Source of the DNA: Yuukianura sp. NJ FZ-2021
Lineage: Eukaryota
Assembly (NCBI GenBank): GCA_046563655.1
Contig: CM102287.1
Coordinates: 2,356,001 to 2,420,000, forward strand
Reading direction: 5' to 3'
Length of the DNA stretch: 64,000 nt
Positions 22,034 through 56,408 of the stretch are shown here, piece after piece (the first letter of the stretch is position 1; the number at the start of each line of letters is the position of its first letter). The position numbers and the translations under genes were made by a program. Below the pieces are notes generated by a model. It was not told the origin of the DNA and did not search any database. It saw only the letters and a list, made by a program, of their open reading frames with translations.

Positions 22034-22377
22034 TCACAATAATCAATAATTAATAATTATTTAATTTAATCCTATATATACTATTATAACTATAACATTG
22101 TTATCAACGGCCAATATCTGTTAAAATCTGATCAATTAACCCTGCTTATTACATTCACAGAAGGAGCAGACACTCGAAGAACCCTGTTTCGTAAAAATCA
22201 GGTTTTTGAATCATTATCTATCATTATTCTCTAATTTTGACAAGACAACCTCTATGTTTTGCTTCAATTGTTTCATCTGACATGTCCGCATCTTTCGTCT
22301 TTGGTTTCATCTTTGTACTCGAACGTATAAAGTTATGATTTGATACTTGATGTCTTATTTTGTTGCAGGACTAAGAA

Positions 22378-23157
22378 ATGGCAGGCACTTCTGAAAGGTA
22401 CAGTTTCTCACTAACAACATTCAGTCCGTCTGGAAAGCTGGTTCAAATTGAGTATGCTTTGAGTGCAGTAGCCTCAGGTGCTCCTACCATTGGGATCAAA
22501 GGTAATCAACTCACATTTCAAACGATCGGTTTACGTATGAGGTCCACAATTAACCGTGAACTCGTGTTTTTAGCCACCAACGGAGTCGTACTGGCTACTG
22601 AGAAGAAGCACAAGTCTTTTCTGTGTGATGAAACAAGTGTTTGGAAGATTGAATCAATTACTCCTCATATTGGAATGTGTTACAGTGGAATGGGCCCAGA
22701 CTACCGCCTACTCGTCAAGAATGCTCGCAAGGCGGCCCAAACGTATCTTCTGCAGTATGGAGAGGAAATTCCTACGATTCAGTTGGTTCAACGTGTAGCA
22801 AATGTCATGCAGGAGTATACTCATTCTGGAGGAGTGCGACCGTTCGGAGTGTCGCTTTTGATTTGTGGCTGGGATAATGGAAAGCCCGCTCTGGTTCAGT
22901 GTGATCCTTCTGGTTCATTTTTCCCTTGGAAAGCGACTGCAATGGGCAAAAACTACATTACTGGAAAAACGTTTTTGGAGAAGCGCTACAGTGCAGACAT
23001 TGAGCTGCAGGATGCAATTCACACAGCCATTTTGGCACTCAAAGAGAGTTTCGAGGGTCAAATGACTGCTGAGAACATTGAGCTGGGGTTGGTCACTGAA
23101 AGAGGATTCCGTCGGCTCACGGTTCAAGAGGTTCAGGATTACTTGGCTAACGTTTAA
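22378..23157 (+). CDS. PSMA2: 20S proteasome subunit alpha-2; one 72-nt intron (22502-22573)
   Basis: [61 protein letters not shown]; ~235 aa after splicing. Confidence 0.97.
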
Positions 23158-23949: not shown

Positions 23950-26900
23950 ATGTCGACATCAGAAAAGAGGGGGAATGACCTTCTGGATCTTCTTGGAATC
24001 AAGGACAATCAATTGGTAAGTTGGAATTGGCATAAATTCATCAGTAATCATGGTTATCATTCCTTAGTTAACTTAATTAGGTTACAATCGATAAGCAGCT
24101 GGAGGTAAAGTACTAACAACTGATTTGTTTTAGGATTGGAGAGACGTTGCGAACATATCATCTACATCCACCTTCATCAATAAGCTGTCACGTCTCATCA
24201 CACTGCCGAGATGGACAGAAGAAGTTGCAAGTACTTTTCCAGCACTGCTGGGTTCCATACTGGACGAAAGTTACACAAAGGAATACGAACAAGTGAGGAA
24301 CGAAGAATCGAAGTTGTCATACAAGTTCAGCATTACAGTAGCCTTGAGCAAACTCATCAGAATCCATCCGTCGGCCCTACAGTAAGTTAACCAGTCATTC
24401 AACTTACTAATCATCAAAGTTAACCCATCATTGAACAACTTGATTGATGTTTCTAGGTTCGCCGAGATGCTGTTTCCAAGATGTGGTTCTCCGCTTTCGT
24501 GTCTTTCAGCATTAGTAGACAAGTCAAGTCCAAGTGTATCTAAAAGACCGAGACGACAAAGTGTCGAGTACACAGCTGAAGACGCAAATACGCTACTGCA
24601 GGCAGTGTTGATTTTACTCAAAGTATTGCCAGTACATATAACCAGAGAGTGGCCCTTGATGTCTTTCCTTGATTTGCTCAAAATTGGTGACAAGATATTG
24701 ACTTGGTGAGTCCCTATTATAAAAGTGCCTTGTAACTACAATTTTGATGATTATTTAGTGTTCCTGATCTTAATCGTTCAAATTTTGTGATAGGCTGGCT
24801 TTACAATGCGTCGGAGTTATTCTGAAATTCAGCGACGATGAGCTGGGAAACTTGAAGCTCAAACACGGAATTGATTCATCAGACGATTTGTTATTTTCGC
24901 TACAATTTCAATCAACATTTGATTCATGTGGAGACTATCCAGGATCCGGTGCTGCTACAATTCTCACTACAGAAAACGGTAAGCGATCCTTATATTTGTC
25001 AGAAATTAGTTTTAAAAACTGTGCTTTTCATAAATACATAGGTGATTTATGTTTTATTTTTGCAGGAATCGTTCGTTTTCCTGGATCTTTAGTGTCTGTT
25101 GCTGGTACTCTTGTGAAAACTGGATCCAGTGAAACTGTTCGTCCACCGCCAGCTGACCAATCGTCCGATGGAAGTGTAGTTCAGTTGAGTTCTACAGTGT
25201 CCTACATACGTGAAATCGCCCTGTCACTCTCTTCAAAGTTTTGTCCAGTTTGTCTCGTTGGGCCCATCGGAAGTGGAAAATCAACCTTGATCAAGTACAC
25301 TGCAAGTCTCTTCGGAAGAGACTCTTATCCCCAGTTCATCTCAGTTCAAATGAGTGACCAAATCGACTCTCGACTTCTGCTTGGTTCCTACCATTCTACT
25401 GACCTCCCTGGACAATTTGTGTGGAAACCAGGATCCTTAACAAAAGCAGTTCTCAAGGGATACTGGATTGTGCTGGAAGATGTTGATTCAGCTCCAGCAG
25501 ACGTTTTAGCACTTTTCGATGGTCTCATTGAGACACACAAGTTATCTGTTCCAGGATACGGTGACATTGAAAGCATTCATCCCGGTTTTCGTGTTTTCGC
25601 GACGTGCAGAACACAGGTAAGAAATCACTTCTCTCTTCAAAACTTTAGGTTTTATTTAAGTGTATTTTAGATTTTTAGAAAAGGTGAACTTTACAAACGT
25701 TTTTGGAACGTATTTTTGTGGTGATAGGCTGGAAAGAGAAGCGTCAAGTTAGGAAAACAATGGAAACGGATAATGGTGGATTCCATGAGTTCAGAGGAAA
25801 TGAAATTGTTAATTTCTCAAAATTTTCTACACTTGAAACCACTGGCTGATCGCTTCATTGGGATTTTCGAAGCAGTTGTGTCTTTTCAATCAGATGCTGG
25901 CGGTAGGAATGCTCGCGTCGTTTCGCTGAGGTTAGTTTAATAATTTTCAAGCGTTTTTTCAAAATAATTTTTATATTTTTGTCAAATTCTGGAATTATGA
26001 TGCCCTTTTTCATGTGTTCAGGGATTTTTTAAAATTCTGCCGACGTATACCTTCTACGCTGGACTTAACTCAGACACATGCTGCAATTGTGATTTTCCAA
26101 GAAGCTTGTGCTCTTTTCATCAATTCTTTTCCAAATCCAGGTACGTTTTTTCAAAATTCTCCTATTCTGAAATTTAAATCCTGAAATTTGGTTCGTTATT
26201 ACTATTACTTTTGTAGAGACAAGACAAGAAGTAGCTGAGATCATTGGGACACAACTGAATTTGCTTCGTGCCAAGGCTGAATACTTTTGTACAACGTATA
26301 AACCACACGTCAACATTTGCACCAACACTTCAGTTCTCACGGCTGGTCGCTACTCTATTCCAATGCTCAAGCCAATTCTGAATTCAAAACGGTAAGTATT
26401 AGGAATTCAGATTTTCAGAAATGACCATTTTTTAGAAAGGTTTTTTTTTATATAGAAATGCTGCGGGGGTGTTTTCTCTGACGAAGAAAGCATGTAACTT
26501 GATGGAGACGTTGGCTGGAAGTGTGTTGAGTGGAGAGCCAGTGCTGCTGATTGGTGAGACTGGTGTTGGGAAGACGTCTTGTGTCCAGTTCCTTGCAAAT
26601 GTCCTACAGCAGAAACTCATTGTGGTCAATCTCAATCGACAAAGCGATTCTGGAGACTTGCTCGGAGGGTAAGCACACAAAAAGAGTTTAAAAGTTTAAT
26701 AATCAGCGCGCTGATCACCGCTGCAGCGATATATAATGATTATTTTTTGATTTTTTCCAGTTATAAGCCCGTGGAGCTCAAGTACATTTTTAAACCAATT
26801 CGAGAGGAATTTGAGAGTCTTTTCATCGATTCATTTGACCAAGATGCCAATTCCAAGTTCTTGGGTCACATCATGACCTGCTATGCGAATCGTCGCTGGA

Positions 26901-29900
26901 ATGACTTAATCAAACTCATGATTCATGTCCAGAAAGCAGCAGTCAAGAAATTGGCAGTACCAAACGGAGGATTAGCAAACAGCAGGGAAGAAACTATGCA
27001 CAGGTATTGTTCAAAACTCTGTTTCAAAAAAAACATTCAAAAGCTTGGTTTTTTAATACTTTTTTTTTGAAAAGGTGGACAGCCCTTGGGCATCAGTTGA
27101 GTAGAATTGAACTGCAAATTACGACAGGAGCTGAGAGTCCGTTTGCATTTTCGTTTATTGAAGGAACGCTCATCACCGCTATCAAGAATGGTACGTTTTT
27201 TTACTTCAATTTGTTAAGTTTTTTTGAAAAGTGGATTTTTTTTTAATATTTTGCAATATTTTTTAGGATACTGGATACTGCTGGACGAAATAAACTTGGC
27301 TACTCCGGAGATGCTGCAAAGTATTTGTGGAATTTTGGATGAAGATGCTGATGTTCATCTGTGGGAGAAAGGAGACGAAGGCCCTATTCGTCGACACTCC
27401 AACTTCCATCTGTTTGCTGCCATGAATCCATCTACGGATGTTGGGAAGAAGGATTTGCCACTCGGACTCAGAAACAGGTAGAACACTTCTAAAAATGACT
27501 AAAAACCCGGGTATTTTCAAAATTCAAATGTGTTAAATTTTAGATTTACTGAAGTGTTTGTGGAGGAGTTGACGGAACCACTGGAACTGCAAGTCCTTGT
27601 GTCAGACTACTTGAAAGAAATGGCGTTGAGTTCAACCCAGATTGAGAGTATTGTTGAATTCTACTTGACTGTTAAATCTCTGTCGCAGTCCACTCTTGTG
27701 GATGGAATGGGCAAGAAACCACATTTCAGTCTCAGAACTCTCTGTCGAGCTCTGAGCATTTCAGCGATGAATCTCTACGGAAGTGCAACTCGATCGCTGT
27801 ACGAATCCTTCTGCCTCAGCTTCTTGACTCAACTGGACTACTCTTCGCATCCTATCGTTCAGGCATTAGTCGCAAAGTAAGTACTCCATCAACCCAAAAC
27901 TTTTAAATTCCAAGCTCAAAAAGTTCATAAAAAAAAATTTTCGAAAAATGTTTTTGACAGGCACATTTTTGGAAAAGTTGAGCTGAAATCAATTCTAAAT
28001 CAGGCTCTCCCCTGTCCAGCCTCCGGAAAACACGTCCAAGTCGAAGGGTATTGGATTCCACAAGGAGACAACGAACCCACAGAGTCTGGCAAGGTAAGAA
28101 GCACAGTTTTTTTTTTCGAAAGAGCTGTTGACTTTTTTGCTTTTTAACTCTGACTTTTTAACTTTTTTGCAGTATATTTTGACTCCAAGTATCCGACGGA
28201 ATTTGAAGGACTTGGCCAGAATAATTTCTGCAGGAAGACTGCCAGTATTGATTCAGGGTGAGACGAGTGTTGGGAAAACGAGTTTGATTCAATACGTGGC
28301 TGGAATCAGTGGAAACAACTGCTACAGAATCAACAACCATCAACACACTGACCTCCAAGAGTACATTGGCTCATACCAATCAGATCAATTCGGAAAATTA
28401 GTCTTCACTGAAGGTAACTCCTTGACGCCGTACAGGTTTTAGTTTAAATCAGAAATGAATTTAATGATTTTTGATTCCAGGAATTTTGGTAACGGCGATG
28501 AGGCGAGGAGAGTGGATTATCCTGGACGAATTGAATTTAGCTCCATCCGAAGTTCTGGAAGCACTCAATCGCTTGTTAGATGACAACCGACAGTTGTTTA
28601 TAACTGAAACTGGACAAACAGTCACTGCACATCCAAGATTCATGTTGTTTGCTACCCAAAATCCACCAGGACTCTACGGTGGAAGGAAAGTACTGTCCAG
28701 AGCATTTCGAAATCGGTTCATTGAGTTGCATTTTGATGAAATTCCAACTGCTGAATTGGAAACCATCCTCCACCATCGATGCAACATTCCGCAATCCTAC
28801 AGCAAGAAAATCATTGGTGTTCTGAAGGAACTTCAGGTTTGGAATTTTAAATTCAAAATGTTGAAAAATTTTATTAATTGTTTGTGTTCGCTTAGATGAG
28901 ACGAAAAGCGAGTGCAGCACTGGAAGGAAAACACGGTTTTGCTACACTGCGAGATTTATTTCGGTGGGCAGAGAGATATCGCCAAAGTGGTGAGCAGACG
29001 ACGACATTTTATGACTGGGATCAACATTTAGCAGACGAAGGGTACTTGGTTCTGGCCGGAAAAGTTAGGAAACCAGCAGAAGCAGAAGTTATTCGACAAG
29101 TTTTACAAAAACATCTCAAGAGAACTGTGGATCCAAATCATTTATTTTCACGTAAGGGGTCAACAAAGCTCAATTTTCAAAATATTTCAAAAGTTTCATT
29201 TTCATTTTGTTTTCAGTTCATGAGAAAACGTCGGCTGTGACTCGACCCATGTTGGAGGTTATTCTAAACAGCGATTTGGCAGAATTCAAGCACATTGTGT
29301 GGACATTTCAGATGCGTCGCTTAGCCGTTTTGATTGCAAGTTCAGTAAAATTCAAAGAACCAATTTTGCTCGTGGGAGAAACTGGAGGAGGAAAGACAAG
29401 CGTTGTTCAACTTCTTGCGAATTTGTACAAACGGGAACTCTTTTCTGTCAATTGTCACATGCACAGCGAAGGAAGCGATTTCCTTGGAGGGCTCCGTCCA
29501 GTTCGAAATCACCAGGAAAATGTAAGTTTCAGAAGAAAAAAAAATTCTTAAAAAATTTTTTTCCTAAAAAAATTTTCTCTGAAAAAAAAGCAAACTTTTT
29601 TTATGATTTGATTTTTTGTTGATTTTCAGGAATGTAGACTGTTTGAGTGGGTGAATGGCCCTCTTGTGGAAGCGATGGAGGAAGGAGGAATGTTCTTGGC
29701 AGATGAAATTTCCTTAGCCGATGACTCAGTTCTGGAGAGAATCAATTCAGTGCTGGAACCGGAACGAACTTTGTTGCTAGCGGAGAAGGGAGACGAAACG
29801 CCCAAGTTGGTTGTCGCTCATGAAAACTTTCAGTTTATTGGAACCATGAACCCTGGTGGAGACTACGGAAAAAAAGAAGTAACTTCACTTATTCCATTCT

Positions 29901-32900
29901 CCACAAATTCCTGAAAAATCCATTTCTAAATCTTAATTTTTCATTTTTTAGCTTTCACCAGCCTTGAGAAATCGATTGACAGAGATTTGGTGTGAAGTTT
30001 CTTCAGATCCGGCCGACATCGAAGCAATTGTAGAACACAATTTGATTTCCAGTGTCCGTGGAAAAGGAATTGGTCAAATCATGATTTCCTTTGTGAATTG
30101 GCTCAAGACCAACGAATTGGGCAATCGATGTACAATTAGCATCCGAGACTACTTGTCCTGGACACAATTCATCAACAGTGTGCTGGAAAGTGACCTTGAC
30201 ATGTCACTGGCAGCAGCAGTCAATCACGGTGCTTGTCTCACTTTTCTGGATGGACTTGGCAGTGGAACCACCGCAACAGAAAAGTAAACCTACCTCACAG
30301 TTTTTCTGTAAACTGAAAAAGAAATTGTTTCTGGTCTTTTATATTTTGTTATTTTTGTGTACAGCGTCGTCGTTTCGCAAATTGTAAAAATTCAAGCCCT
30401 GGAATTTTTGGAGGAGCAAACTTCGAAACTGTGTGACAACTTTTCCAAAATGTCACCACCGGACATTGTCGTTTCAAATACTTCCGAATCTATCGGAATT
30501 GGGCCGTTTACGATCAAGAAAAACTTGGCGACATCCAACTTGGCGACATCGGAGAATGCAGATGTTAGTTTCAACTTGGAGGCTCCCACTACAAGTCAAA
30601 ATGCTCTCCGTGTCCTGCGTGCTATGACTCTAAAGAAGCCAATTCTTCTAGAAGGATCTCCCGGTGTCGGAAAAACAGCGCTGGTCACCGCTTTGGCCAA
30701 AATGTGTCATCAGCCAGTCGTTCGAATCAACCTGTCCGAACAAACCGACATTTCTGACCTCTTTGGAGCCGATTTGCCCGTGGAGGGAGAAAGTGGCGGG
30801 CACTTTGAGTGGCGTGACGGACCATTGCTCCAGGCACTCAAAATGTCCGCATGGATTCTTCTGGATGAACTTAACTTAGCATCTCAGTCTGTCCTGGAAG
30901 GACTCAATGCCTGTCTGGACCATCGTGGGGAAATTTTTGTGCCAGAACTGAACAGGACTTTCAAGATTGGACATGGACACGGTGGGAACAGAATTTTCGG
31001 GTGTCAGAATCCAGTGAGACAAGGAGGAGCTAGAAAAGGCCTGCCGAAATCGTTTCTAAATCGTTTTACTCAAGTATTTATGGATCCATTGAGCGTCACC
31101 GATTTGACTTGGATTATGCAAACGACGTTTCCAGCGATTCCAGAAAAGTGGATTTCAGCGATGGCCGGATTGGGAGAAAGCGTTGTGAGTGCGGTGAGTG
31201 TTCTTGGGCTTTTCGGATCCAAAGGGGCTCCGTGGGATTTCAATTTGAGAGATTTGATACGCTGGGGATCGCTGATTGAGAAGAAGAGAGAAGAGGGGCT
31301 GGATGTAAATCCGAGTCACTTTGTGGATTTCATCTACGGAAGGAGAATGAGGACAATAGAAGATCAGGAAAAGATACTGGCGCTGTACGCTGAAATCGCT
31401 TCTAAGGCAGGACTGGCAGAGGAATGTGAAGTGAAATCGCTGCTGAAGTGTGGATCCAGTGGCTATAGCTTGATTAACGCTGAATTCCAGTGTGGATTTG
31501 GGAAGTTGGAGAGGAGAAGTGAAAAGGCGTTTCCCCTTGGGGATGGAAGCGATCAGTTACTGCCGCTGCAGAAGCAACTTCCAGCGCTGGAAGCGATCAC
31601 ACTTTCACTGGAAATGGGATGGATGCCAATTTTGGTGAGTTTACTGTCAGTTTGTCTTCATTGACCTACTAATTAACTAAAGTACTCATCTTTTTTTTTT
31701 TTTTTAACTTAAACTCAAGTGTAATGGCCTGCATGCAGGGTACTTGAAGTGAAATAAATACAAATACAAATACAAATACAAATACTGATTTTCAAGAAGA
31801 CAACATGAACTTTTTTTTTTCTAAATAGAAGAAGCTGATTTTTAATTTTAATTTTTTGAATGGCAGGTAGGACCTACAAAATCTGGAAAAACTTCGATTG
31901 TGAGATTGTTGGCTGAAATGACAGGTCATGACCTCAAGATTATGACAGTTAGCCCTGAAATGGATACGATTGAGCTTCTCGGTGGTTTTGAACAGGTTAG
32001 CATGAACTTTTTCAGTTTTGAAACAATTTTCGTGATAAACTAAATCAAAAGGTTGGAAACTTAAAATAATTTGTGTTAGGCTGACATTTACCGGAAGATT
32101 GATGAAGCGACTGGAGCACTGCGTCAATTGTTGGAGAAAGTTGTGAAACGGATTGTTGGACAGCAGGGGAAGAAGGAAAGTTTTAGTGTGGTGGATTCAG
32201 AAGTGCTTGATCTCTGGTCATCTCTCTGTGCTCTGCTAAATCTCGTAGTGGGTAAGCTTTCATAATTTCAAAATTTCTGAATTTCAAAGTTTTGTTAGCT
32301 TCGTGTTGTTTATGAGATTTAACTGGATTATTTCAGATGGAGAACTGCTGGTGGCTCAGGATGAGGAGCTGAGTCGACTGGAAGGAAGATTGAAATTGCT
32401 AGAGAAAGGAATTGAGAAATGCAAAGAGTACGTTGTGAGAGATACGAATTTTGGAGAGACCTCAAACATCCCTGGAGAAATGGAAGTTATTACGGAGGAA
32501 TTGGAGGGAATTCGGAGGCACTTGAAGGGAGGAATTCGGAATGGAGCCTTTCAGTGGGTCGACAGTCTCCTCGTCAAGGTAAAGCTAAGCACAATCTTCA
32601 AAAAATCTGTACAACTGCATTTGAATTCTAATTAGAAGTAGTGTTAAATTGTCATTTTGTGTTTCGGGATTTAGGCAATTCGAGATGGGAAGTGGCTGCT
32701 TATCGATGGAGCCAATCGCTGCACAGCGGCAGTGCTGGATCGCTTGAATTCGCTGATGGAACTTGATGGAAGTCTCTTTTTGTCTGAACGAGGAAGTATT
32801 GATGGGAACATCATCGAGATGAAGCCACACCCAAACTTCAGACTCATCCTCACAATGGATCCAGCACACGGTGAAATATCAAGGTAAGCTTTCCACCAAA

Positions 32901-35900
32901 TTCCGTTCAAACTTCAATTGAAATTAAAATTTTGAAGAAAATAGATGAAGGAATTTGAGGAAATAGAAATTTTGAAGGAAATACAAATTTTGGGTGAAAG
33001 GGATGGGAAAAACTTAAAAAAGTTTTGTTCAAGTAAAACGCCAATTAAAGTTTTAATTTCGTGAGATAGGCGAATTCTCACGCGGAGAAAGGGAATTTTT
33101 CCCTGTGTATTTTTCCTATCTCTTTCCCTATCTCGCGTAATGCATTGTTTTTGGACCAATGAGAATCGTCCTTTCAAATTATTTGAGTCCATGTATACTC
33201 TCGTATGCCAAAAAATTTATTTTTTATGTGGCGTCGACTTTATTTCTAATTCCATTTTTTTTTATTTCCTAAATTTTTAAACGTGATTGATTTTCACAGA
33301 GTTGTCCTAAAAATTGAATTGAACTGAGGTGTGAACATTTATGAAAATTAACGCTCTCTGGGTTGATTAATGATCGTTTTTCAAAATTCCTAGCGCGACT
33401 TAAGTAGCTTAATTTTAATGATCTCCGATTTGAAAATGTTAAATTGAAACAAAAGTGTTAAAAATTCAGCCTTGTTGAATTTGATCTTTAGAGCAATGCG
33501 GAACCGTGGTGTTGAGATTTATATGGCTGGACCGGAAGAGCTAATCTGTGATGCTGCGGATGCTGAAACCAAGGAGACGCTGACTTCCGGAATCAACTGG
33601 TTTGATCTCGACATTCTCTGTAGAGCAAAGGGATTTGCCAATTCGGCCCTTAGAAGGGATCTCGTAACTTTACATGAAAAAATATACAGCGCCCTGGCCC
33701 CTTCACTAGGTAAAAACAAAAACCAACTTCTTTGATTCAACGATTTTGAAAACAAAATTTTCTCTTTTTTGTGTTTTAGGAATCGCTGACCGTCCACATA
33801 TTTACCAAATTGTTGAATCGCTGGAAAGGCTCGGAGTGGAACTTCGTCACGGAACGACTTTCTCCGCAGCACTTTTAAATTCCTTGACCTCAGTGTATCT
33901 CAAAGGGAACCTCCACGTCCTTGACGTGAACTTGAAAACTGAAATCCAATCTATCCTCCACCAATTTCAAACAAATAATCTCCGCAGCTCTAACTGTTTG
34001 GCGTAAGTTTCACATTTGTGCTGGCTTTTTTCGAAAAAAAAAAAACTAAAATGTTTTTATTTATTTTAGACTCCGAGCTTCTGTTCCAAACTTCGTAAAT
34101 TCTCAGCAGTATCGAGTGTGGAGAGTGGCACACATTTTGGAAACGACGTTCCAGTCACCATCAATCATTCCAGTTCTCCAGAAACTCAAAAACTCTGTCC
34201 AGAATTCCTCTCTTCTGGAACACCTTCTCATGTTTACTCCGTTCCTCAGAATTTCTGCAAACGACGCTCAAGCTCTACTGGAAGTTTTGAATTTGAAGTT
34301 TCCAAACATCGAAATCCAACGAGGTGTAAAATTAGTTCAGATTTTAAGTTCTGCTGGAGAAAGTGATGAACTGCAGTGGGATCCACAGTGGAAGGCTCAC
34401 AATTTGGCAAACTCTGGAAATTCTGGAAAGACGGACCAACTGGAAAAGATTTTGAAAGTTTCACTTTTGCTTCATTCTTGCCTCTTCAGAAAAAGTGATG
34501 CTGAGGACTGGAAGACTGGAAGTGTAGGAGACAGAGCCAGAGCGATTCATCAAAAGAGATTTTTCCATGAATCCATGACGACCTCTTGCGCCGACTTTTA
34601 CTCAAGATTTTGGATTTTACTGGACAAGTTTGATGGACTTCTGGAGAGTGGACTCAAGATTCAAAAGACTTTGAATCTGGATAAATCTGGAAGGGATTTG
34701 GCGTCAGTGTGGTTGAAAGGACTGCTGTCGTGGGTGTGGAGAGGAAGACTTTTTAGTGAAAGTCATTCAGTTGGAGACTTTGTTTGGAAAACTGAAGACA
34801 TGGCTCAGTTGATTCTTGTGGTGGAGTGGATTGGAGAGTGTGTCGTTCCGTTTTTGAAGACGCTTGACGCTGCGGCTGGACAAGAGCTGGAATCGCTGGT
34901 GACTTTGTGTCTCAATCAAGTTGAGCATGTGGGAGGAAGAAGCACGCGGCTGGAAGGAGGAAGAAACCTCAGAATTGCGGCCGACACAAAACCGTTCTCA
35001 GTTTCGACGTCGAAGGCCAAAATTGTGGGGGAAATTCTAGGGTAAAACGAAAACTCAAAAGTTCAGAATTGAAAAGAATTTGAAATTTTAGTTTGAAATT
35101 TTTTGAAAATTTTTACTTTTTTTTTATTTAGGCTCTGTTTCGATGTGTGGTCGCTGAGTAGTAGCGTCAAACCGGAACGATTGGCAGGATTTTTGATGTC
35201 CAGTGACGGAATCCATTGCAGTGCTGCACTCACGGTACTGCTGCCAAGTATTTTGCATGGGCCAAGTTCTGAACAAGGTAGGCAAGGAACAATTTACGAA
35301 TCAAAACTTTTAACAAATCTGCTTTTTAATTTTGGAAAATTTTCAATTTTGGAATTTGCGTCAAGGTAATCCGGAAGTTTACTTCAATGACGTGAAAGAC
35401 GCAATTGGGAAATTGAAAAGTAGCGACGCCGATGAGCCAGAAAAGACGGAATCAGAGGAGGTGGAATCGCTGAAGCGAAATGCAAAAGGACTTTGGGAAT
35501 GGTCCAGATTTTTTGAAAATGGACGAAAATCTGCCTTCGTCCACCCGATGTTGCAAGATGTTTCATTGGGTGGAAATGCTTTATCGGAGTACTTGGTTTG
35601 GGAAGAGGGAGAGAGACTTCGGAGTTTGTTTTTAGAAAAAAAGTATGACCTCATGCCCATGGTTTCTCTCCTGCCGTACTTTGTCTCCAAAATACTCATT
35701 CAACAACCTGGACACAACTTTCGAGTGGCGACTTTGGGATCTCGAGAAGTATTTGCATCTTCGCTGGACACAATCGCTGGAATTGTTTCCAAGAAGATCC
35801 TGTCACCAGTTGAAACGGACGAAATTGTTTTGAAGAAACTGGGAGAAAAGTCGAGGAAATTGTTTGAGACACTTATGACTCCGCATAATCAGACTGTAAA

Positions 35901-38900
35901 ACTGAAATTTCAAGAAATTTTTGAAAAGAGAAGCGATTGGCTGGAACAGAAAATGGCCGAAGTTGGAATGCTGATGGTGGAATTGGGGCTAGAAATGATG
36001 GACAAGGGATGCAGCCTTCCAACAGTCGATCCTGCCGTGGAATCCAAAATTGTGCTGGGATACTTGCAGGACGAAGTAAGTTTAAAATAGCATTTTTAGT
36101 TTTTGAATTTAATGATTTTGTTGTGAACTTTTTGAATTTAAAATTGTTTTCGTTTTTGGTTTTAGATAAACTTTTTCGAAACTTGGATTACCGCTCAGAG
36201 AATGTATGAGTTGACAGAAACTGGACTTGATTTGCTTTCAGTTCATTCCAGTGCAGTTCATTCTTACTTCAGCGCTGCTGTGGCCCACTTGACTCTTCTT
36301 CGTGAAAAAGTGAAAGTTGTTGAGAAAATGAAGGCGTATCGTCCTCAGCCACCGAACTACGACGAAATTCGACAAGCACTGGAACAGTTTCGGTATTCCT
36401 TCATGGCCAAACCAGGAACTTGTGATGAATTAAAACTCAAAATCCAGAAAATCTTCGCTGGAGAAGCGACGGATGAAGTTGTCCAGGACACTGTCGTCTC
36501 CTGTCACATTTGGATTGACTCCCACAGGAATTTTGCACAGAAACTCTTCAAGCATTTCTGGTACTGGGATATAACTGCCGGATTCCTTTGTGTTTCCACT
36601 CAGGTATTTCGAAACAGTTTTAATTTTTGATTTTTGAGTTTTTATGATTTTATGTGCTTTAGATACATTTCCTATTTGTGTTTAGGTGTCTGTTGGACTG
36701 ACGCTGATTAGCTATGCGCTGAATCGCTTCAAACTGGGTCCAAATTATGAACAAAAGAAACAACTTCAGCGATTGATCCAATATCCAGTTCAGTTCAGGA
36801 ATCCTGATGACGCTCTGAGTGTATCTGTTCTGGACAAGAATTCATTTGATTCTGGGTTTCAAAAATCGTAAGATTTCATATTTTTTAGGAATTTTAGAAA
36901 AGTGTAGATTTTGAAACATGAATTTTTTTATTTTCATTGATTGCAGAATCTACACGCCATCTCTAATAAGTTTCCTAAATGAAATAGAGACGGAAGGCTA
37001 TGGGAGCAGTTCTACGATGTTGAAGTTGCACAATCTCAGCGCCAATGTCGCAGCGATTTGGAATTTCCAGGAAGAGGAGAAGCGGAAAGCAAAAGAGCTG
37101 GAAGACGCCATGTATGTTTTCAAAGGAAAGGAAAGGACCATGGGCCTCACGGAGGATCAGCAAGAATCGCTGGAGATTTCCAACACTTTTCCAGACTACA
37201 CTGAAGACATGATTGACTTGGAAGTTCAAAATTCCCTGGAGTATGGAACAGATCGGAAGAACAAGAAGCCGGAAACTGAAAAAGACGAAACTACTATCCT
37301 GGGAACAGAAGATGTTGAGCTGTTTCTCAAAATTCATGATCGTGTTGTCAACCAAGTCAAGACACACTGGATTTCTGGAAAAGAAGGACTGGACAACTCC
37401 AATCCTGATTTCATTACGCCATATCTAATGAGGTTATTCTTCATTATTCCGATTTTTCACATTTTTTATAAATCTAATTTTAAAATGTTTAATTCTTTCA
37501 GATTTGAAACTGGATCGGCGGAGTTCCTGAAATTTTATGATTCGCTGGGAAAGGATGAGGAGAATCAATTTTCGCTTGGAGCGATGGTGACTGTTCAGCA
37601 TTTGAGATATGTCCAATCACAAAGCAGCTTTTCTAACGGAGGTCAAAGGTCATTGAATGACACTAAAATCTACGATTTCTACCATGACATGAACGTAAAC
37701 GAAGTGCACAGACTCAGTCCAGTTCTAAATGGACTCAAGAAACGAGTCAAAGAATTACTAATAGAGTGGTCAGATCATCCGTCACTGCTCAAGGTAATTC
37801 AAAATTTTGAAGAAAACTTTAATATTTTTTTGTTGTTGAAATTGTGATTTTTTGTGTTTTTAGATTTTGGAGGTCATTGCTAGACTGGAATCTTTCAAAA
37901 CTACGAGTGCTCTGATGCGATACGTGACCTGCCTGGAACTTTTACTTTCAACTGCACAAGAATGGGAGAGTTGTGCACATCGAGGAGTGTCCATTGCCTT
38001 GTACTTGGCCGAGATTACAGAAATTATCATCAGTTGGAGAAAACTGGAACTGCAGTGCTGGAAGAATCTACTGGAAATTACTTTCCAGCGACAACAGTCT
38101 GAGAGTCACAAGTGGTGGTTCCATCTCTACTCTTCTGTAATGGAAATTCTCAATTCTCAACACAAAGAAATTCCTCCCGAATTCCTTCAAAATCTCCAGC
38201 AGTTCATGGAAACATCGTCTCTTGGTCAGTTTCAAACAAGACTCAACTACTTGTTCAACATCCACTGTCACTTGATCTCCATGGAGCAAAACAATATTCT
38301 GAACAAATCGCTTCCAGCGTTTCTCCAGCCCTACATCTGGAACACTTGGAATTACTACAAACAGTTTAGAAGTCCAGTGGCAGCCAAACTGACTTCACTC
38401 CGAGCTCCAATTGAAAAGAAAATGAAAGATTTCGTGAAGATTTCGAGGTGGAATGATTCTAACTTCTACGCACTCAAAGATTCAGTCCAAAAGAATCAGC
38501 GCATGCTCAACAAGTTTGTGAAGGAGTGGAAGAAGGCGATGAACACCCCGGTGACGACTGTATTGGTGGCAGATGTAAGTGGAGCTGAATCGCTTGACAA
38601 ATCGCTGCAACATCGCTGGAGAATGTTGAATCCCAGGATATACTTGGCTGAGTCGAGAGATCATGCTGCTGTCAACATTGATTCCGAAGTTTACGAGAAA
38701 CTTAAAGTGAAGCGACTTGGAAAATTGTCCAAAATTTTCAGCAAAACTCACAAAATTATGAAACCGGTGCTGGGCCAAGATGCTGCTGCTTGTGGGAGAG
38801 AGATTGAAGGAATTGAGGATCTTACGACAACAATAATCCAAGATGTTCGTGAATTGCAATCGACTGAGGTAAATTTCCCTGAAAAAAAAATTTTTTTTTT

Positions 38901-41900
38901 TTGAAAAAAAAAAAAGAAAGTTTTCCTGAAAATTAAAATTTTGATTTTAGGTTTCTTCGGATAAAACGGGAGACCAACGACGCAAGATGCTGCACAACAT
39001 TCATTTTCGAAAACGCTCTGCTTTGGCAGATCTGTTCAAAGCACTTCAGGATCTGAACGTTTCATATCGTCGCGGTCTTGTCAAACTTTCTCGAGAGCAA
39101 GGAAATGCTGACAAGTTTCAGCGAAGTTTTCAAATGCTGCCAGTTGATGTTGGTGCTGGATGGAAAGTACTTGGGCTGGAACTGACGGCTGATAAGGAAC
39201 TAGTCAAATCCTGGGAAGGTTGTGAACTCTACTTTCAAAAAAGTCTGGCTCGGATGGCCGTGATGCTCAAATCGTTTGAATCTCCATCAAAAGAACTTGG
39301 ACCGAGGATTATCGAGAGATGCAAAGGATTTGTAGTGGACTTGATGGGAATCGCAACTTCCCAGAAGCAATTTATTGCTGATTTCGCCCAAGATTTGTGG
39401 ACTTTTAAAAGTTTGTCTGAACACAACTACGCTGAAGGACAAGAGAGCAGAAAATTCGAAGAAATCTACCAACAAGCGTGCAAAATTGAGTACGAAACGA
39501 GACAGCTCAAAATCCTTGTCGAATCACTGCAAACTCCGGAATTGAACAAAACGCTGAATACTTTGAACTCAATTTTGGTTCTGACGACTGAAGTGAAAGA
39601 GACGCTGAAAATTTACATCGATTCTGTTCGGATTCCAAATCTTCCGGAAAAACTGATGGAAGGAGAAATGGATTTGGTGGATTCGCTGGAAACGATGGAA
39701 CACATTGCATGTCTTTTTGGATCGCTGGAAAACAACTCCGTTATTGGACAAGCATTTTCCAAAATGGTGGAAGAAATTGACAAATTTCTAGAACGCAGAA
39801 CCCACTATGGAATATCTCCTTTGACCAAAAGTCCGATCAATGGAAATCCAGATTTTGACAGATTTGGAAAAAATGTGAAGATGATTCTGCAAAATATTTT
39901 GCTAACTTTTCAAAAACTGGATAAACTGAAGACTTTGAGACAGCAAGAGGCCAAAACAGAAGAAGAGGAGGACGAAATTCCAAAGACGAATTTGAAGGAA
40001 CTTCTGAACGTGGAATTGGAAACTTTCCAAACCAAGAAACTACTGGCAGGAATTCTTCGTCTTTTCAAAATCATGCGGATCCAAAATTGTGCTGATTTTG
40101 GAACAGTATTTTCCAGCCTGTCTCCACTGTTCCAGCAGTATTCACTCGTCGCTGAATTTTATCTCACGATGTACGTCCAGTTTCATCGCTCAACTTGCAA
40201 GTTACTCTCAGTTCTGCTCGGAGTTTTTGCAACTCTGGCGTCGAAGGTAAGCAAATTCCAAACCTAAGAAAATTCACAAAATTACTAAAATTTCAAAATG
40301 TGATGAAAAATTTGTTTAGAACTTTTGAAATTTTGAAAAAACTTTGTTTTGTGATTTGCAGGGCTTTTGCTTGCCGTCTGATTATGAGAATGATGCAGTA
40401 GCTGAAAGTGAGGAGATGGACGCTTCTGCTGGAATGGGAATGGGTGAAGGAGAGACTACTTCAGATGCCCAAGATGTTTCAGATCGAATGGAGTCTGAAG
40501 ATCAGTTGGAAGATGCGCTCAAAGAGGGAGAAGCTCCGCCTTCAGCTGACAAGGATTTGAACGATGATGAGAAGGGAGTGGAAATGTCGGAGGATTTTGA
40601 AGGGAAGCAGCAAGAGAAGAATGGTCCAGCGGGAGATGAAGAACAAGATGAAGATGAGAGTGATCAAGATGAGAATGCAGAAGATGAACTTGACAAGCAA
40701 ATGGGAGATGTGGACGATCCTTCGGCAGAAAAGTTGGACGACCAGGTACTTTTTGCATTACTTTTGCCTAATCTTATCTAAAAATATGAAATTTCAAAAC
40801 TTTTGTTTTGCAATTTTTTTAAAACGGTTTTGTGATTTTGTAGATGTGGGGTGGTTCGAGTGATGAGGAAGACGAAGATTTAAATGAGAAAGATGAAGAA
40901 CAGGGTAAAGGTTCCAATCGTCAAGCAGAACCAGAGCTAAGAGCCAAAGATCCAACACTTGAAGCTGACGCAGAACCGGAATCTGAACCAGAAAAGAGTC
41001 AAAGTGAGAAGAAAGGAAAGGAATTCAACGAACAAGATGAAGAAGAGTTGAACGATGACCAAACCGACCCCTACCATGGCCAGAATGGACCAGAAGAAGA
41101 GCCGGAGCCACTGGATCTTCCAGACAACTTGAATTTGGATGGAGCAGAAGCACTGGACAAAGAGGAACAAGAATTAGAAGAGAATCCGTTTGATTTGGAT
41201 GCAAAAGAGAAAGAGGAAATCACGGAAGTTCCAGAAGATCAAAATCAAGATGAAAACGGAGATGAAGCTAATCAAGAAATGTCGGATGAAGAAGATCCTG
41301 ATGGTGGGAAAGGAATTGATTTTGAAAAGCCTCAATTTGAAGACGATTTGAACCAAAATGAAAAAGAAGAAGCAGAAGTTGAAAAAGATGAAGGTGAAGC
41401 AGAAACTGAAGATAAGATGGAAACTGACGAAAGAATTGAAAAAGAGGAAGAGAAACTGGAGAATGGCGAGACTGAAGGTGGGACTGAGAGTGAGCAGAAA
41501 ACTGAAGACAAAGCGGAGCCATCAGAAGGAAAAGATGGGAAACAAGATCAGACTTCAGTGGCCAATGAGAAGGCGCAAGGAGATCAGATCCAGGAAGCAA
41601 TGGACACAACTGAAGAACAAAAGTCAAAGAAAGATGAAACTACTTCTGGACAGGCAGAGAGCAAAGATGGAAGTGGTCATGAGGGGAAATCTGTCCAGGA
41701 AGACAAGAATCAGCGAATCCAACAGCAAAATGATCAACCAGACGCTTCGCGGAAACCAGGTCACAATCTTTACTTTTTTCTCAAAAACTTTTTTTTTCAA
41801 TGTTGTAATTTTTTAAATTTTAGGTGATACTGACAACAATCGATCGCTGGCGAACGACCAGAAACTTCCAGAACAAGGTGCACATCGCCTCAAAACTCTT

Positions 41901-43451
41901 AATCGTCCAGAATCGGCTGAAAATGAGACTGAAATGGAGCAACCGGAGGACGACGCTGCAAATGCAAACAGCGCTGAATTGTATCAGCATGTCAAGGACG
42001 CTGAAAAGAGTGACACCGTGACGATTGACAATTCAACAAGAGAACAAGCTGAGAAACAGAAACAATCCGAGTCAGAACAGAAAGAAAAAGAAGAAGCTCC
42101 AAATCCAGATTTAGAAGATTCAGTCATGGACGAAACGGAAGTAAAAGTTGATGAAATTGAAACTCAAAAGCAAGAGGCGAGTATGCAAGGAAACCTTCCA
42201 GAAAAGCCGAAATCCAAAGGTCAAATTCAGTTGGACGCAGAACAAGAACAACCAATGGAAGTTGAAGTTGAAGGAGAAAAAGTTGAGACTTTGGGAGTTC
42301 AGCGTCCTGCCATTTCAGTGATTGAGACTCGTCTGGATCTTCTGGAAGAGTGGAGTCGTGACAAGGAGAAGTTGGCACTCGAACAATCCAAGCGATTGGT
42401 CCAAGTGCAGCAGACACACTTCACTTCTGAGGAAGAAGCGATTTCGCTTGCACAGTGGCATGAAGTGGATGGAAAAACGCTGCATTTGGCTCAAGAACTT
42501 TGTGAGCAGCTCAGATTAGTTTTGGAACCGTCCCAAGCAGCCAGACTCAAAGGAGATTACAAGACTGGAAAACGACTGAACATGAGAAAGGTACATTTTT
42601 CAAAATTTTGAAACTGAAGACATGTGAACATGTTTTGATTTTTTGAGTAGGTTATTCCATACATTGCTAGTGGATTTCGTAAAGACAAAATTTGGCTAAG
42701 AAGAACGCAACCATCGAAACGAGAGTACCAAATTTTGCTGGCTTTGGACGATTCTGCTTCAATGGCTGACAATCAATCGAAACAGGCAAGGATTTAATGA
42801 AATTCTTAAGTTTTTGTGATTTTTTTGAGATTTTAAAAATTCTGAATTTCATTTTTTTGTGAAATCTAGATGGCATTTTCAGCAGTTGCTGTTGTAGCTC
42901 GATCTCTGAGTCTTTTAGAAGCTGGACAGTTGGGCGTGGTTGGATTTGGTGAAGATGTGCAACTGCTCCATCCCTTTGACGAGCCTTTTACTGACTTGAG
43001 TGGAGCCAAACTGATGCGACAATTCAGTTTTGGTCAACGAGCCACAAAGATCGGTCAGTTACTAGAATTTAGTGAGAGAGTTTTTGAGCAGGGAAAGGAG
43101 AGTCACTCGTCGTCACTTGCACCGGAAGTGGCTCAGTTGCTGCTGATCGTGTCGGATGGGCGTGGCGTGAGTCACGAGGGGAGTGGCTTAGTGCGAAAAG
43201 CAGTCAGACATGCCAGGGACAACAACATCTTCATCGTGTTCATTGTGGTGGACAATCCACAGAACAAAGACTCCATTCTGGACATTCGATTGCCAATCTT
43301 CGGAAAAGACGGAAGTCTGGAAATTGCCAAGTACATGGACCATTTCCCATTTCCATTCTATTTAATACTGAGAGACTTGGCAGCATTACCAAGTGTACTG
43401 TCTGATGCGCTGCGCCAGTGGTTCGAATTAGTCACTTCCAGCGAACGCTGA
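23950..43451 (+). CDS. MDN1: Midasin (Rea1), six-AAA+ ribosome biogenesis ATPase, multi-exon
   Basis: Six Walker A motifs (GPIGSGKS, GETGVGKT, GETSVGKT, GETGGGKT, GSPGVGKT, GPTKSGKT) with Walker B motifs (e.g. LDEINLA), a long linker, a D/E-rich tail and a C-terminal MIDAS domain (DDSASM, VSDGRG, LSDALRQWFE). Confidence 0.97.
31691..31785 (+). mobile_element. Possible 3'-end remnant of a non-LTR retroelement in an MDN1 intron
   Basis: T15, then a stem-loop (TCAAGT...CCTGCATGCAGG...ACTTGA), AATAAA and an (AAATAC)x5 tail. Confidence 0.4.
33034..33237. mobile_element. Longer (~200 bp) possible member of the GACGCCA-TIR family in an MDN1 intron
   Basis: AAACGCCAATTAAAG ... TTTTTATGTGGCGTCGA; the interior carries GAGATAGGCG...CCTATCTC, like the 4431-4620 TIRs. 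Confidence 0.4.
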
Positions 43452-43603
43452 ATTCCTAATTTATGATTAACGATTTACTTTTTGAGGAGTTTTTGGGCTT
43501 AATTATGATTTGATGTTGAGTTTATTTTGTTATTTCTAAGAAATCGGGTGAGAAGTAAACAATATTTTCAGCAAAAGCGGCTTTCCATGCGGGAAGTAGA
43601 AAG

Positions 43604-44364
43604 TTAGGAGCAGAACTAAACACAAAATAGTTAGATTTTTTATGAAATTTTTGAATTTTTGCAAAAAAAAAATTTATAAAGTTTACCTTATTTATAGCGT
43701 TCATGGCACAGCGAATAACGGCGTCGTAACTTTTACAATTTTCTTCACTTGGATTTACATTGGCTGAACGCCACACAAAAAATTAATTTTTTCAATTTCG
43801 AGTAATTTCCTTTTGAAAATAATAGTTTTCCTTGTGAAATTTTAAATTTTTGTTGAGTGGCGTGTACCTGCAGCATCTTGGCATTGCATCATGAGCATTG
43901 TCGCTTTCTCTCTCACATCTTCTGGAATGTGCTTCTCAACCATCGTCAGAGCAGCCACTGGATCCAGAAGTCCATCTTCTCCAATTACACCTTGTGCAAG
44001 GTCAATTTCAAAAATACAATTTAGAAAATTTAAAATTTAAAACAAACTTTTAAATTTTGAAAACTTATCTTGTTGCAGGACACATCGGAGGACGCATGAC
44101 ATCTTCTCGGCTCGTTCCTTGGTGTCAACTAGATTCAATTTGGTGATGCAAATGGAGATTCCCTTCATCTGCTCCGTCAACATGTCCTTGATGGCTTCTT
44201 TGCAACTTTTACCACTCGCTTCAGTCCTCCACTGTAAGTCAAATGTCAACTTTTTAATTCTAATTTTCAAAGTCCGTAATTCTTATCAGTTTTTTTAAAT
44301 TGTTTTCAGAGAAATGCCTTACGAGACCAGAAGTGAGGAGGAGGAGCAGCAGTGGTTTGTGCAT
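43604..44364 (-). CDS. Odorant-binding protein A (8 Cys), 5 exons
   Basis: MHKPLLLLLLTSGL|WRTEASGKSC...ISIC...SCVLRC...MQC...ENCKSYDAVIRC...FCS*. C-X3-C and C-X8-C OBP spacing; TATA-like box near 44453. Confidence 0.85.
43764..43867 (-). mobile_element. Intron of OBP-A whose termini are GACGCCA-family inverted repeats
   Basis: The intron reads GTACACGCCACTCAACAAAAATT ... AATTTTTTGTGTGGCGTTCAG. Confidence 0.5.
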
Positions 44365-44921: not shown

Positions 44922-45686
44922 TTATTTGGGTGGTTGGCAAAACTGAAATGAGTATTAAAAGTTATGATTAGAATTTGGAAACTTATGATTAAGATTAGTT
45001 AATTAGTTTTAAAGTTAATTGTTATTTAATACCAAGTTTAATCCGGATAGAGCACATTTAATAAGAGGGTCATAGGATTTGCAGTTCTCCTCTTCTGGCA
45101 AAATGCCAGCTAACAACAACAAATTTATATTCAGAACTTGAAATATAATAAAAATTTTTAATGTTTTGGCTTAACTGACCTGTGACCTCGAAGCATCCCA
45201 TCATCACCTACACCAAACAACTTTTTAATTCCTCTTTTTAAAGAACGTTTTTAAAAAGTAGTTTTCTAACCGTTCTCGCCCACTCTTGAACGTAGTCTGG
45301 AAGATTAGCAGTGATGAAGGCAAGGGAACCAATTGGATCAGCGTACCCATCAGGAGTCAAAATCCCCTCGCGCTAATTAAATATATTAATTAAAACTTAA
45401 TAAATATTTAACTAAAAAGTAAAAACTAACCGCAAGGACGCACTTCATGACGCACGTCATCTTCGCTTGTCTTTCCTTGGCATTTTTAAATTTCATCTGA
45501 GCAGTGCACTCCGTGACGCCCTTCAACTGCTTCTTCGTCAAGGCACCCACTGCTTCTTTGCACACTTTGTCCTCTCCTAGGGTGTGGCCCTTCAATTCAA
45601 ATCAAAATTCAATTTCAGAATTTGTCTAAGATTCTGTTTGAACTTACTACAATTAGGAAGGTGACAAGGGCAGATTTTAAATTCAT
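44922..45686 (-). CDS. Odorant-binding protein B (8 Cys), 6 exons
   Basis: MNLKSALVTFLIV|GHTLGEDKVC...TEC...TCVMKCVLA|REGILTPDG...MGC...ENCKSYDPLIKC...FCQPPK*. TATAAAA near 45741. Confidence 0.85.
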
Positions 45687-47548: not shown

Positions 47549-48440
47549 TTATTTGCAAACCTGGAAATTGTTTAGCACAAGCCAGTTAGTTCAAGCTAAA
47601 ATTCAAAAATTGTTTCAAAATTCAAGGAGAAACAATGTTTGACCTTGTTCATAGTATTTTGTGCACATTTCATCAGAGGTTCGTAGCTTTTGCAATAAGG
47701 ATCGTCTGCGGGAGGAATTATTACGCCTGCAATTTCAAAAAAAAAAAAATTCAAAATTTTGAATTTTTAAAAAACGTTGATTTCTTTAATACCTAAATGT
47801 TCATGACAATCAACAAATGCATCCAAAACTCGATTTCGCAGAGCTGGTGGTAATTCACTTTCTAAAAATGACAAGGAAGAAGCTGCGTCCGGTTTGGACT
47901 CCGCGTCCAACTTTTTTCAAAAACATTTTCGAAATTTAACACAAATGTAATTTCCAAAATCAGAGTATCGCAGGTTCATAAAACTTACGAATCCAGACTT
48001 TTTCATAGCACAGACGATCACGCACTGTTGAAAAAGAATCAAGTTACTAATTGCTATGAAATATTTGCAAACTTTCTCCAAAATCGTCTTTTACCAGCAT
48101 TTTTTCTGACTTTTCTTTTCCGTTGCTAAATTCCATTTCGGAAAGACAGTTCTGGACTTTCACCAATTGACCTGAGTCAAAATAAATTTCAAGTGAAAGT
48201 CTGGTCGAAATTTTGCACAAAATTTCTGATTTCACTACCTTTGATAAGTTTTGTCATTATGGACTTGCATTCTGCTAGTGAAATTTCGTCGTCTGCTTTC
48301 ACCTAATTCAAAATTTTAGCATAAAAATTGTCTCTTAAAATTTTGAAGAAAAAAACTCTCCTCACCATAAGTCCGAAAAGTAGAAGAGAAAGGACAATTT
48401 TCAGTTTTGAAAAATATACTGGGCCAGAATTTGGCTTCAT
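47549..48440 (-). CDS. Odorant-binding protein C (8 Cys), 7 short exons, mostly absent from the ORF track
   Basis: MKPNSGPVYFSKLKIVLSLLLFGLM|VKADDEISLAECKSIMTKLIK|GQLVKVQNC...EKML|CVIVCAMKKSGF|LDAES...FVDCHEHL|GVIIPPADDPYCKSYEPLMKCAQNTMNK|VCK*. TATAAAA near 48524. Confidence 0.85.
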
Positions 48441-55843: not shown

Positions 55844-56408
55844 ATGGAAAAATCACTGGTAAGATTTGTCAAATTTTTGGAAAGTTAACCGCCCTTTGAA
55901 AACAAATAATTTCCGGACTTGGAATTTAGAAATATTTTATCCGCATTGCAAGGGAAAAAATATTTTAAACTTTTCACGGCGTTTAAATTAAACAAGAAAA
56001 AATGAAATTGTTGAAATGAATAATAATTGTTGAATTGTTGAAATTGAAATCAAAATGAACTTTACAAATAAATTGGAACTGAATTTCCATCTGTTTTTTC
56101 AGTTGCCGTTTGTGGTGCTTGTGTGTTTGTTTTGTGTGACTGTTTACTGTGCTCCAATTCCGAAAGACGGAGAATTCGGTTGGTCAGACATGCCTAACGA
56201 TGGAATTCCTCCAGGCTACAAAGCCCTTCTGGAGAAACTGAGAAAAGAGAATCCAGAGGCTGCTGCCAAGGGAGAACTCCCTGATCCAGAGTTCGAAGCA
56301 GACGGAAAGCACAAGGAGGGAACCTATGGATGGTCGGATGGACCCAACGGAGGGATTCCTCCAGGATTCCAGGCACTCCTGGACAAAATCAAGGCCAAAT
56401 CAAAATAG
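55844..56408 (+). CDS. Small secreted protein with two ~27-aa GWSDxPNxGIPPG repeats
   Basis: Exon 1 MEKSL (55844-55858) splices to exon 2 from 56103; signal peptide ...VTVYC-AP; TATATAA at 55575. Confidence 0.8.
55885..55986. mobile_element. Degenerate GACGCCA-family TIR element, intronic
   Basis: TTAACCGCCCTTTGAAAA ... TTTTCACGGCGTTTAA. Confidence 0.35.

Follow-up and report, generated by a model that had tools for sequence, protein, structure and literature searches.

The locus considered here raises the question of how an intron that begins with AT and ends with AC is removed, and whether the gene carrying it is a working one. The locus lies on the minus strand of a 64,000-nt stretch of DNA from Yuukianura sp. 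NJ FZ-2021 (contig CM102287.1, positions 2,356,001 to 2,420,000), which is called the window below and whose own numbering is used throughout. The gene, OBP-A, is a small five-exon gene of the odorant-binding-protein (OBP) kind, and the intron in question occupies positions 43994-44068. The intron is most probably an AT-AC intron removed by the major spliceosome, a reading to which a probability of roughly 0.8 is assigned. OBP-A appears to be functional, and its AT-AC intron seems to have been kept by selection since before the window species separated from at least one deeply diverged species.

The second exon of OBP-A ends, on the minus strand, with ...TGT GTC CTG CAA CAA G at 44069 and is followed by ATAAGT (44068-44063). 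The intron ends with ...GACCTTGCAC (TTGCAC), its AC being 43995-43994, and exon 3 begins at 43993 with AA GGT GTA ATT. The original prediction had given the end of exon 2, the ATAAGT donor, the end of the intron and the start of exon 3, and its bases and coordinates proved exact. Joining at AT and AC yields an open five-exon frame (...CVLQQEGVIGEDG...) of 420 nt and 139 codons, with the product ...C-V-L-Q-Q-E-G-V-I-G-E-D-G.... Joining at the AG at 43992-43991, 3 nt downstream, also leaves the frame open with the loss of one Glu. Joined translations confirmed both outcomes as they had been foreseen.

All GT-AG, GC-AG, AT-AC and AT-AG pairs keeping the downstream frame were enumerated in the region. 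There are 107 of them in the window, most of which would remove much of the protein. For the GT within the donor hexamer (44064), the sole in-frame partner is a distant AG, with none locally. Canonical in-frame pairs nevertheless exist close by. One joins AAA|GTTTGT at 44047 to the AG at 43991, giving a 57-nt intron (43991-44047, ending CACAAG|) and placing eight residues in the position of Glu-Gly. The other is cryptic and joins GAT|GTGTCC at 44083 to the same AG (93 nt). The earlier statement that the nearby GT restores no frame is thus correct for 44064 with a local AG, but it overlooked the pair 44047/43991.

These junctions leave different numbers of residues between cysteines C3 and C4 of the product: 41 with AT-AC, 40 with AT-AG, 47 with the 57-nt pair and 35-36 with cryptic upstream donors. 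The spacing found in relatives was obtained with a profile of exon 2 from OBP-A and its paralog OBP-B (alignment A1), searched against 1.84 billion representatives, which returned 30 proteins at E<=0.001. Twelve of these look full-length, and on scanning all 12 matched PBP_GOBP (PF01395) at E<=0.0036, seven of them at or above the 22-bit cut-off; the other 18 matches are fragments without the full cysteine pattern. Among the 13 domains of the 12 full-length-looking proteins, this spacing is 41 residues in 11 cases, with a single domain at 40 and another at 42. A search of the PDB with OBP-A exon 2 by phmmer gave 0 matches, and a search of the ESM Atlas with the same exon gave no usable match.

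The classic OBP cysteine pattern contains C2-x3-C3 and C5-x8-C6. The AT-AC models of OBP-A and of its ortholog described below both read C-x3-C, 41 residues, C, 13 residues and C-x8-C. Judged from these relatives, OBP-A is a divergent odorant-binding-protein-like gene in which C3-C4 spacing is strongly constrained. The genes OBP-B (45036-45686) and OBP-C (47549-48440) lie upstream of OBP-A on the same minus strand and, as had been proposed, are genuine paralogs. Both have a C3-C4 spacing of 41, and OBP-A matches this value only when spliced at AT-AC.

A related locus was sought with a second alignment (A2), composed of P0003, a protein of 56 amino acids, and of window exon 2 read through into the intron. 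One metagenome contig, L001, was recovered, and no relative was found in genome contigs or viral contigs. The exact 34-nt end of exon 2 had 0 matches in metagenome contigs or genome contigs. Protein word-index searches with exons 2 and 3 returned no match either, but the index also missed P0003, so these blanks carry no weight. On L001 an ortholog of OBP-B (1135-1726) is followed by an ortholog of OBP-A (2662-3461), in the same order and orientation as in the window. The last midasin exon of the window was sought in L001 and not found; orthology is therefore judged by the order, B before A, and by reciprocal best similarity.

In L001, exon 2 of OBP-A ends with CTA CAG CTG G|ATAAGT, at the same codon position as in the window. 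The AT-AC intron spans 2931-3015 (85 nt), with AT at 2931-2932 and AC at 3014-3015; it ends with ...CTCCACTGTTTAC (TTTAC|AG), and the exon resumes as AG GGT ATT ATT GGG GAT GAC GGC. The AC of both species falls in the same alignment column, and the exonic bases that follow, AA in the window and AG in L001, form the synonymous codons GAA and GAG. The nearest AG past the AC is 3 nt away in the window and 2 nt away in L001, where it cannot be joined to the donor in frame. Nearby in L001, the one canonical pair that keeps the frame is a weak TGT|GTCCTA (phase 0) joined to ACAG|, which deletes five conserved-length residues, and the 57-nt canonical pair of the window has no counterpart there. Since the AG is out of frame in L001 and the alternatives are not shared, AT-AC is the sole junction that suits both species at matching positions of the alignment. 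As a control, 13 of the 14 introns across the three paralogs of the window and four of the five in the L001 copy of OBP-A are GT-AG. The L001 ortholog of OBP-B likewise keeps GT-AG at the position used in OBP-B (GGC|GTGAGT...TTTCAG|CGG).

A third lineage is represented by P0003, which is 61% identical to exon 2 of OBP-A and is evidently a bacterial-style open reading frame (ORF) call running from the exon into the intron. It ends with ...CVLMQ-D-K-S-stop, and the window read-through gives ...CVLQQ-D-K-F.... The Asp codon (GAY) across the phase-1 boundary of P0003 implies an A at intron position +1, since a GT donor would give Gly.

Divergence between the window and L001 is large. With the AT-AC models, both coding sequences are 420 nt long, colinear and free of gaps, and agree in 97 of 139 residues and 283 of 420 nt. 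Synonymous divergence is saturated (pS 0.76, pN 0.21), and 13 of 39 fourfold-degenerate sites are identical. The interior of the AT-AC intron has 46 of 76 positions identical in the best global alignment, where shuffles average 44.1 (z 0.98); for the remaining three orthologous intron pairs, z against shuffles is -0.19, 2.43 and 2.24. With introns essentially randomised and synonymous sites saturated, the retention of ATAAGT and AC is not due to inertia. In the 70 codons past the junction, the differences at codon positions 1, 2 and 3 number 9, 7 and 33, with a pN/pS of 0.158, and the other two downstream frames hold 4-8 stops in each species. This third-position bias, the low pN/pS and the stops in the other frames show that translation of the exons past the junction follows the AT-AC frame. 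For exon 2 the pN/pS is 0.309. The AT-AC intron is evidently old, being already present before two species separated whose synonymous sites are now saturated. The original prediction of a U2-type AT-AC intron thus gains support from the identical termini in L001, the A at +1 in P0003 and the purifying selection downstream, its type being assigned by sequence signals.

In PMC1557818, a U2-type AT-AC intron is defined operationally by a good match to the U2 5' splice site save at +1, with a position weight matrix (PWM) threshold of 75. The donors AAG|ATAAGT (window) and TGG|ATAAGT (L001) each agree with GTAAGT at 5/6 positions and have G at -1. The OBP-A donor fits the definition because it is a good U2 match apart from +1. 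Of the competing explanations, removal at the same AT-AC junction by the minor (U12-dependent) spliceosome survives best, and it is improbable. It is favoured by the fact that AT-AC termini are most often of the U12 type, with 9 U12 and 4 U2 AT-AC introns in D. melanogaster (PMC4528330, Table 3). Sequences resembling the U12 branch motif TCCTTRAY also occur: TCCTTATT in L001, set in a pyrimidine run 31 nt from the 3' end, matches at 7/8 positions, and TTCTAAAT in the window at 6/8, 27 nt from the 3' end.

According to PMC3584512, U12-type introns combine a conserved donor with a branch sequence whose optimal distance from the 3' end is 11-13 nt, and they have no pyrimidine tract. Both branch-like motifs lie well outside this optimum, and the branch sequence TCCTTAAC does not occur 11-13 nt from the 3' end in either species. 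The TCC core of the U12 donor is mismatched at all three positions, +4 to +6 being AGT in both species, and no ATATCC is present. Compared with the U12 donor consensus ATATCCTTT / ATATCCTT, ATAAGTTTT agrees at 6/9 positions and ATAAGTTGA at 4/9, short of a U12 donor. The L001 intron has a long pyrimidine tract, with 35 pyrimidines in its last 40 nt. The earlier remark that the window intron has no U12 donor or branch point therefore stands.

Several points weigh against a major-spliceosome AT-AC intron in OBP-A, the 7/8 branch-like match in L001 being one of them. The exact branch motif CTRAY is absent from the intron in both species, and the candidate U2-type branch region of the window (TTCTAAAT, 44019-44026) is tentative. 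Pyrimidines in the last 40 nt of the window intron are modest in number (25/40). The probable U2-type assignment was made by simple consensus matching. The P0003 evidence, read from a protein, bears on the donor side, and the AT-AC junction as such is deduced from DNA. Pfam gave no relevant match to single exons of OBP-A or OBP-B, so that family membership is suggested by way of the relatives. The alignment with the paralogs, which had been offered as gap-free support for the junction, holds in length, but the intron positions after C-x3-C differ (+9, phase 0, in OBP-B; +13, phase 1, in OBP-A; +21, phase 0, in OBP-C); the paralogs therefore bear on how long the product is and not directly on the exact junction. 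Finally, with an in-frame AG 3 nt past the AC and the weak GT-AG pair 44047/43991, minor alternative products are possible.

The first and last bases of an intron interact in the second splicing step. In the proposed mechanism, the U1 small nuclear ribonucleoprotein would pair with AAG|ATAAGT, the mismatch at +1 being tolerated because the consensus is kept at -1 and from +2 to +6. U2 and U2AF would then engage the upstream branch region and the pyrimidine-rich tract. During the second catalytic step, a pair of A(+1) and C(-1) would replace the usual G-G one, so that the AC, and not the AG 3 nt on, would serve as the 3' splice site. Such compensation would explain the use of AC over the nearby AG. 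A change of the last base from G to C rescues a first-base change from G to A in yeast and human introns (PMC1557818), and AT-AG combinations are disfavoured and spliced poorly (PMC3584512). Splicing at exactly these bases and dependence on the major spliceosome are both predicted from the sequence.

It is quite unlikely that the true splice is canonical, using GT-AG at the weak or cryptic sites 44047 -> 43991 or 44083 -> 43991, with the AT-AC a coincidence. Both pairs are in frame in the window, and introns of 56-65 nt occur in insects; a gene finder limited to GT-AG could still choose one of them. The donors, though, are poor, and the resulting C3-C4 spacing of 47 or 35 is seen in 0 of the relatives' 13 domains. 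The 57-nt pair is missing from L001, where the sole cryptic option uses a different donor phase. The 13 nt that a cryptic upstream donor would remove contain four differences between the species, two of them synonymous at third positions, and their frame is kept.

There is a very slight chance that in the window species the AT donor is mainly joined to the AG at 43991, giving an AT-AG intron and a Glu-less protein. This AG is in frame and 3 nt away, and the resulting spacing of 40 is found in one of the relatives' 13 domains. Against it stand the poor splicing of AT-AG introns and the finding, in PMC1557818, that rescue of A(+1) needs a C at the last position. Position -3 is, moreover, an A for the AG and, for the AC, a C that immediately follows CCTTG. 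The corresponding AG of L001 is out of frame.

That OBP-A is a pseudogene or truncated gene, with a dead donor, a retained intron and translation ending at the intronic stop, is very unlikely. Retention does bring an in-frame stop, after 11 extra codons in the window (TAA) and after 8 in L001. Exons 3-5 are nevertheless intact and colinear in both species, and they show the low pN/pS and the 9/7/33 distribution described above in spite of saturated synonymous divergence. Such downstream constraint would not have survived in a gene that died before the species separated. The weakest explanation, that an assembly error or a private, recent or segregating null allele of GTAAGT accounts for the A at 44068 and the true intron is a Glu-less GT-AG one (44068 -> 43991), is likewise very unlikely, because the same +1 A is present in L001 and implied in P0003, which are independent lineages, and, although a G at 44068 would make a perfect canonical 78-nt in-frame intron, this GT-AG version is out of frame in L001 and gives a spacing of 40 against 41 in 11 of the 13 domains.

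Other candidates were tried and rejected. The GT within ATAA|GT, taken as the true donor, is out of frame with local AG in the window and in L001. A-to-I editing of the +1 A mimicking GT-AG would depend on the AG as acceptor, and in L001 that AG does not keep the frame. An intron shifted by one base (TA...CA) gives the same mRNA, and its signals are no better.

The age of the AT-AC intron within the OBP lineage can be approached through the paralogs and more distant relatives. The middle intron of OBP-B (45373-45430, GTTAGT...AATTAG) is in phase 0 and begins 9 nt after the C3 codon, 4 nt away from that of OBP-A in coding coordinates; OBP-B has four introns, all GT-AG, and its 3' end lies beyond the modelled part. 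The corresponding intron of OBP-C (47911-47988, GTAAGT...AAAAAG) is in phase 0, 21 nt after the C3 codon, and the six introns of that gene are also all GT-AG. The protein fragments P0006, P0009, P0015 and P0028 read into Val codons (GTN) 21 nt after C3; in two of them the Val read-through was judged against the full-length relatives P0010 and P0012. The GT-type +21 position in distant relatives suggests a later origin of the OBP-A AT-AC intron. The description of the intron as lineage-specific is apt insofar as OBP-B, OBP-C and the distant relatives use GT-AG introns elsewhere, but it does not hold in the sense of a recent intron.

A tentative history, which is conceivable but not favoured, is that the AT-AC intron is no relic and arose de novo in a young tandem OBP lineage. 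The boundary would have shifted by a number of bases not divisible by three at unchanged product length; the termini would have changed in concert (first G to A, final G to C) and then been held by selection through saturating divergence. The odd termini may have been kept because a slow second step and the stop in the retained intron tune the output of a chemosensory gene.

Some further features of the family accompany these. The shifting intron position at a constant C3-C4 length of 41 looks like sliding by non-multiples of three, or like loss followed by regain. ORF fragments of the relatives P0004, P0005, P0011, P0014, P0016, P0020, P0024, P0029 and P0030 show Val or Trp read-through just before the first Cys of C-x3-C. 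OBP-C has an intron before this Cys (48025-48094), which is absent from OBP-A and OBP-B; the latter two thus have a shared derived gene structure. Between the window and L001, exon 2 of OBP-B is 86.5% identical (52 residues) and OBP-A is 70% identical overall, the AT-AC-bearing copy being the faster-evolving one of the pair.

The remaining parts of the OBP-A model can be given in order along the minus strand. Exon 1 (44323-44364, 42 nt, phase 0) has its ATG at 44364-44362 and a hydrophobic, signal-peptide-like start, and its ortholog in L001 is also 42 nt long. It is followed by a canonical intron 1 of 91 nt (44232-44322, GTAAGG...TTACAG). Exon 2 (44069-44231, 163 nt) carries four cysteines, including the C-x3-C pair, and ends in phase 1. 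In the AT-AC intron of 75 nt, the donor hexamer (44063-44068), preceded by exonic AAG, is identical in L001, and the terminal AC (43994-43995) stands in the context CCTTGCAC|AA. The bases ACAAG close both exon 2 (44069-44073) and the intron as it would end at the AG (43991-43995), forming a direct repeat. Exon 3 (43868-43993) is 126 nt long and is the first of the exons showing the codon-position bias. Intron 3 (43764-43867, GTACAC...GTTCAG, 104 nt, phase 1) has a position common to OBP-B and OBP-C. Within the equivalent of exon 3, L001 has an extra GT-AG intron (3070-3155, 86 nt, phase 1), which represents a gain or loss between the species. Exon 4 (43687-43763) carries the C-x8-C pair, and intron 4 (43616-43686, GTAAAC...GTTTAG) is 71 nt long.

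The gene closes with a terminal micro-exon of 12 nt (43604-43615), TTC TGC TCC TAA, encoding Phe-Cys-Ser-stop. A candidate polyadenylation signal, AATAAA, can be read at 43521-43526, about 80 nt past the stop. The 12-nt micro-exon of the form x-Cys-x-stop is conserved, being FCS in OBP-A, VCK in OBP-C (47549-47560) and FCM in L001 (3450-3461). It adds an eighth cysteine and is easily overlooked by gene finders; OBP-B probably has one too.

Elsewhere in the window, a very large midasin gene (about 24700-43450, plus strand) lies tail-to-tail with OBP-A. It was recognised by an AAA_5 match in the Atlas, where the commonest phylum is Arthropoda, and by a C-terminal VWA domain in Pfam. A proteasome alpha-type subunit is encoded in one long ORF (22375-23157, plus strand), a gene with a Vitellogenin_N domain occupies 15436-20700 (plus strand), and a further set of long ORFs lies at about 6600-12300 (plus strand). 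The midasin, proteasome and Vitellogenin_N neighbours are consistent with an insect genome. An ORF at 56034-56408 (plus strand) has a hydrophobic start followed by two copies of a ...GWSD.PN.GIPPG..ALL.K... motif; it has no Pfam match at E<=0.001 and may encode a small secreted repeat protein.

The practical consequence is that gene finders restricted to GT-AG would mis-model OBP-A across the lineage, either inserting 6 net residues or truncating or skipping the gene. Errors of this kind distort OBP repertoires and pseudogene counts. A conserved case in a fast-evolving chemosensory gene also offers a natural system for studying the origin and persistence of such introns.

As regards the protein, OBP-A resembles the insect odorant-binding proteins (PF01395) in its signal-peptide-like start, its length of about 139 residues and its C-x3-C and C-x8-C pairs. 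It differs in belonging to a divergent subfamily with eight cysteines, one of them in the terminal micro-exon. Wu and Krainer (1997) is reportedly the original paper on U2-type ("class II") AT-AC introns. The OBP-A intron would add to this established and very rare class. Full-text searches returned no paper combining an odorant-binding protein with AT-AC, or with a non-canonical splice and an intron.

U2-type AT-AC introns are among the rarest known, with 3-4 in D. melanogaster and 15 in human (PMC1557818 and PMC4528330). PMC1557818 counts 15 in human (of 185,966 introns), 6 in mouse and 3 in fly (of 40,843 introns), with none in worm or Arabidopsis. Sheth et al. read them there as relics in old genes. 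The existence of such introns is supported by conservation among orthologs. For D. melanogaster, PMC4528330 lists four from FlyBase (Taf2, CG1354, CG4433 and CG10750), all with RNA-seq junctions; three of these introns measure 56-65 nt, and a closely similar GT-AG alternative exists for two. "Obp" has 0 occurrences in its File S4, and none of the four lies in an Obp gene.

Compared with U12-type AT-AC introns, as characterised in PMC3584512, the OBP-A intron shares the terminal dinucleotides only. It lacks the ATATCC core and a branch motif at 11-13 nt, and it has a pyrimidine tract, which is strong in L001. The likeness to the four FlyBase introns is closer. They too are U2 AT-AC introns in coding regions, with short lengths comparable to the 75 and 85 nt found here, and the alternative GT-AG of two of them recalls the nearby AG and weak GT of the window. 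The fly junctions are supported by RNA-seq, whereas that of OBP-A is predicted from DNA. Human SCN4A and SCN5A, and Taf2 of human and D. melanogaster, treated as U2-type in PMC1557818, have in common with OBP-A the AT...AC termini with an ATAAGT donor, the absence of U12 signals and the preservation of the termini in orthologs. The known U2-type cases are mostly found in ancient conserved genes, whereas OBP-A is a fast-evolving, tandemly duplicated gene, whose paralogs and relatives carry GT-AG introns at nearby but differing positions.

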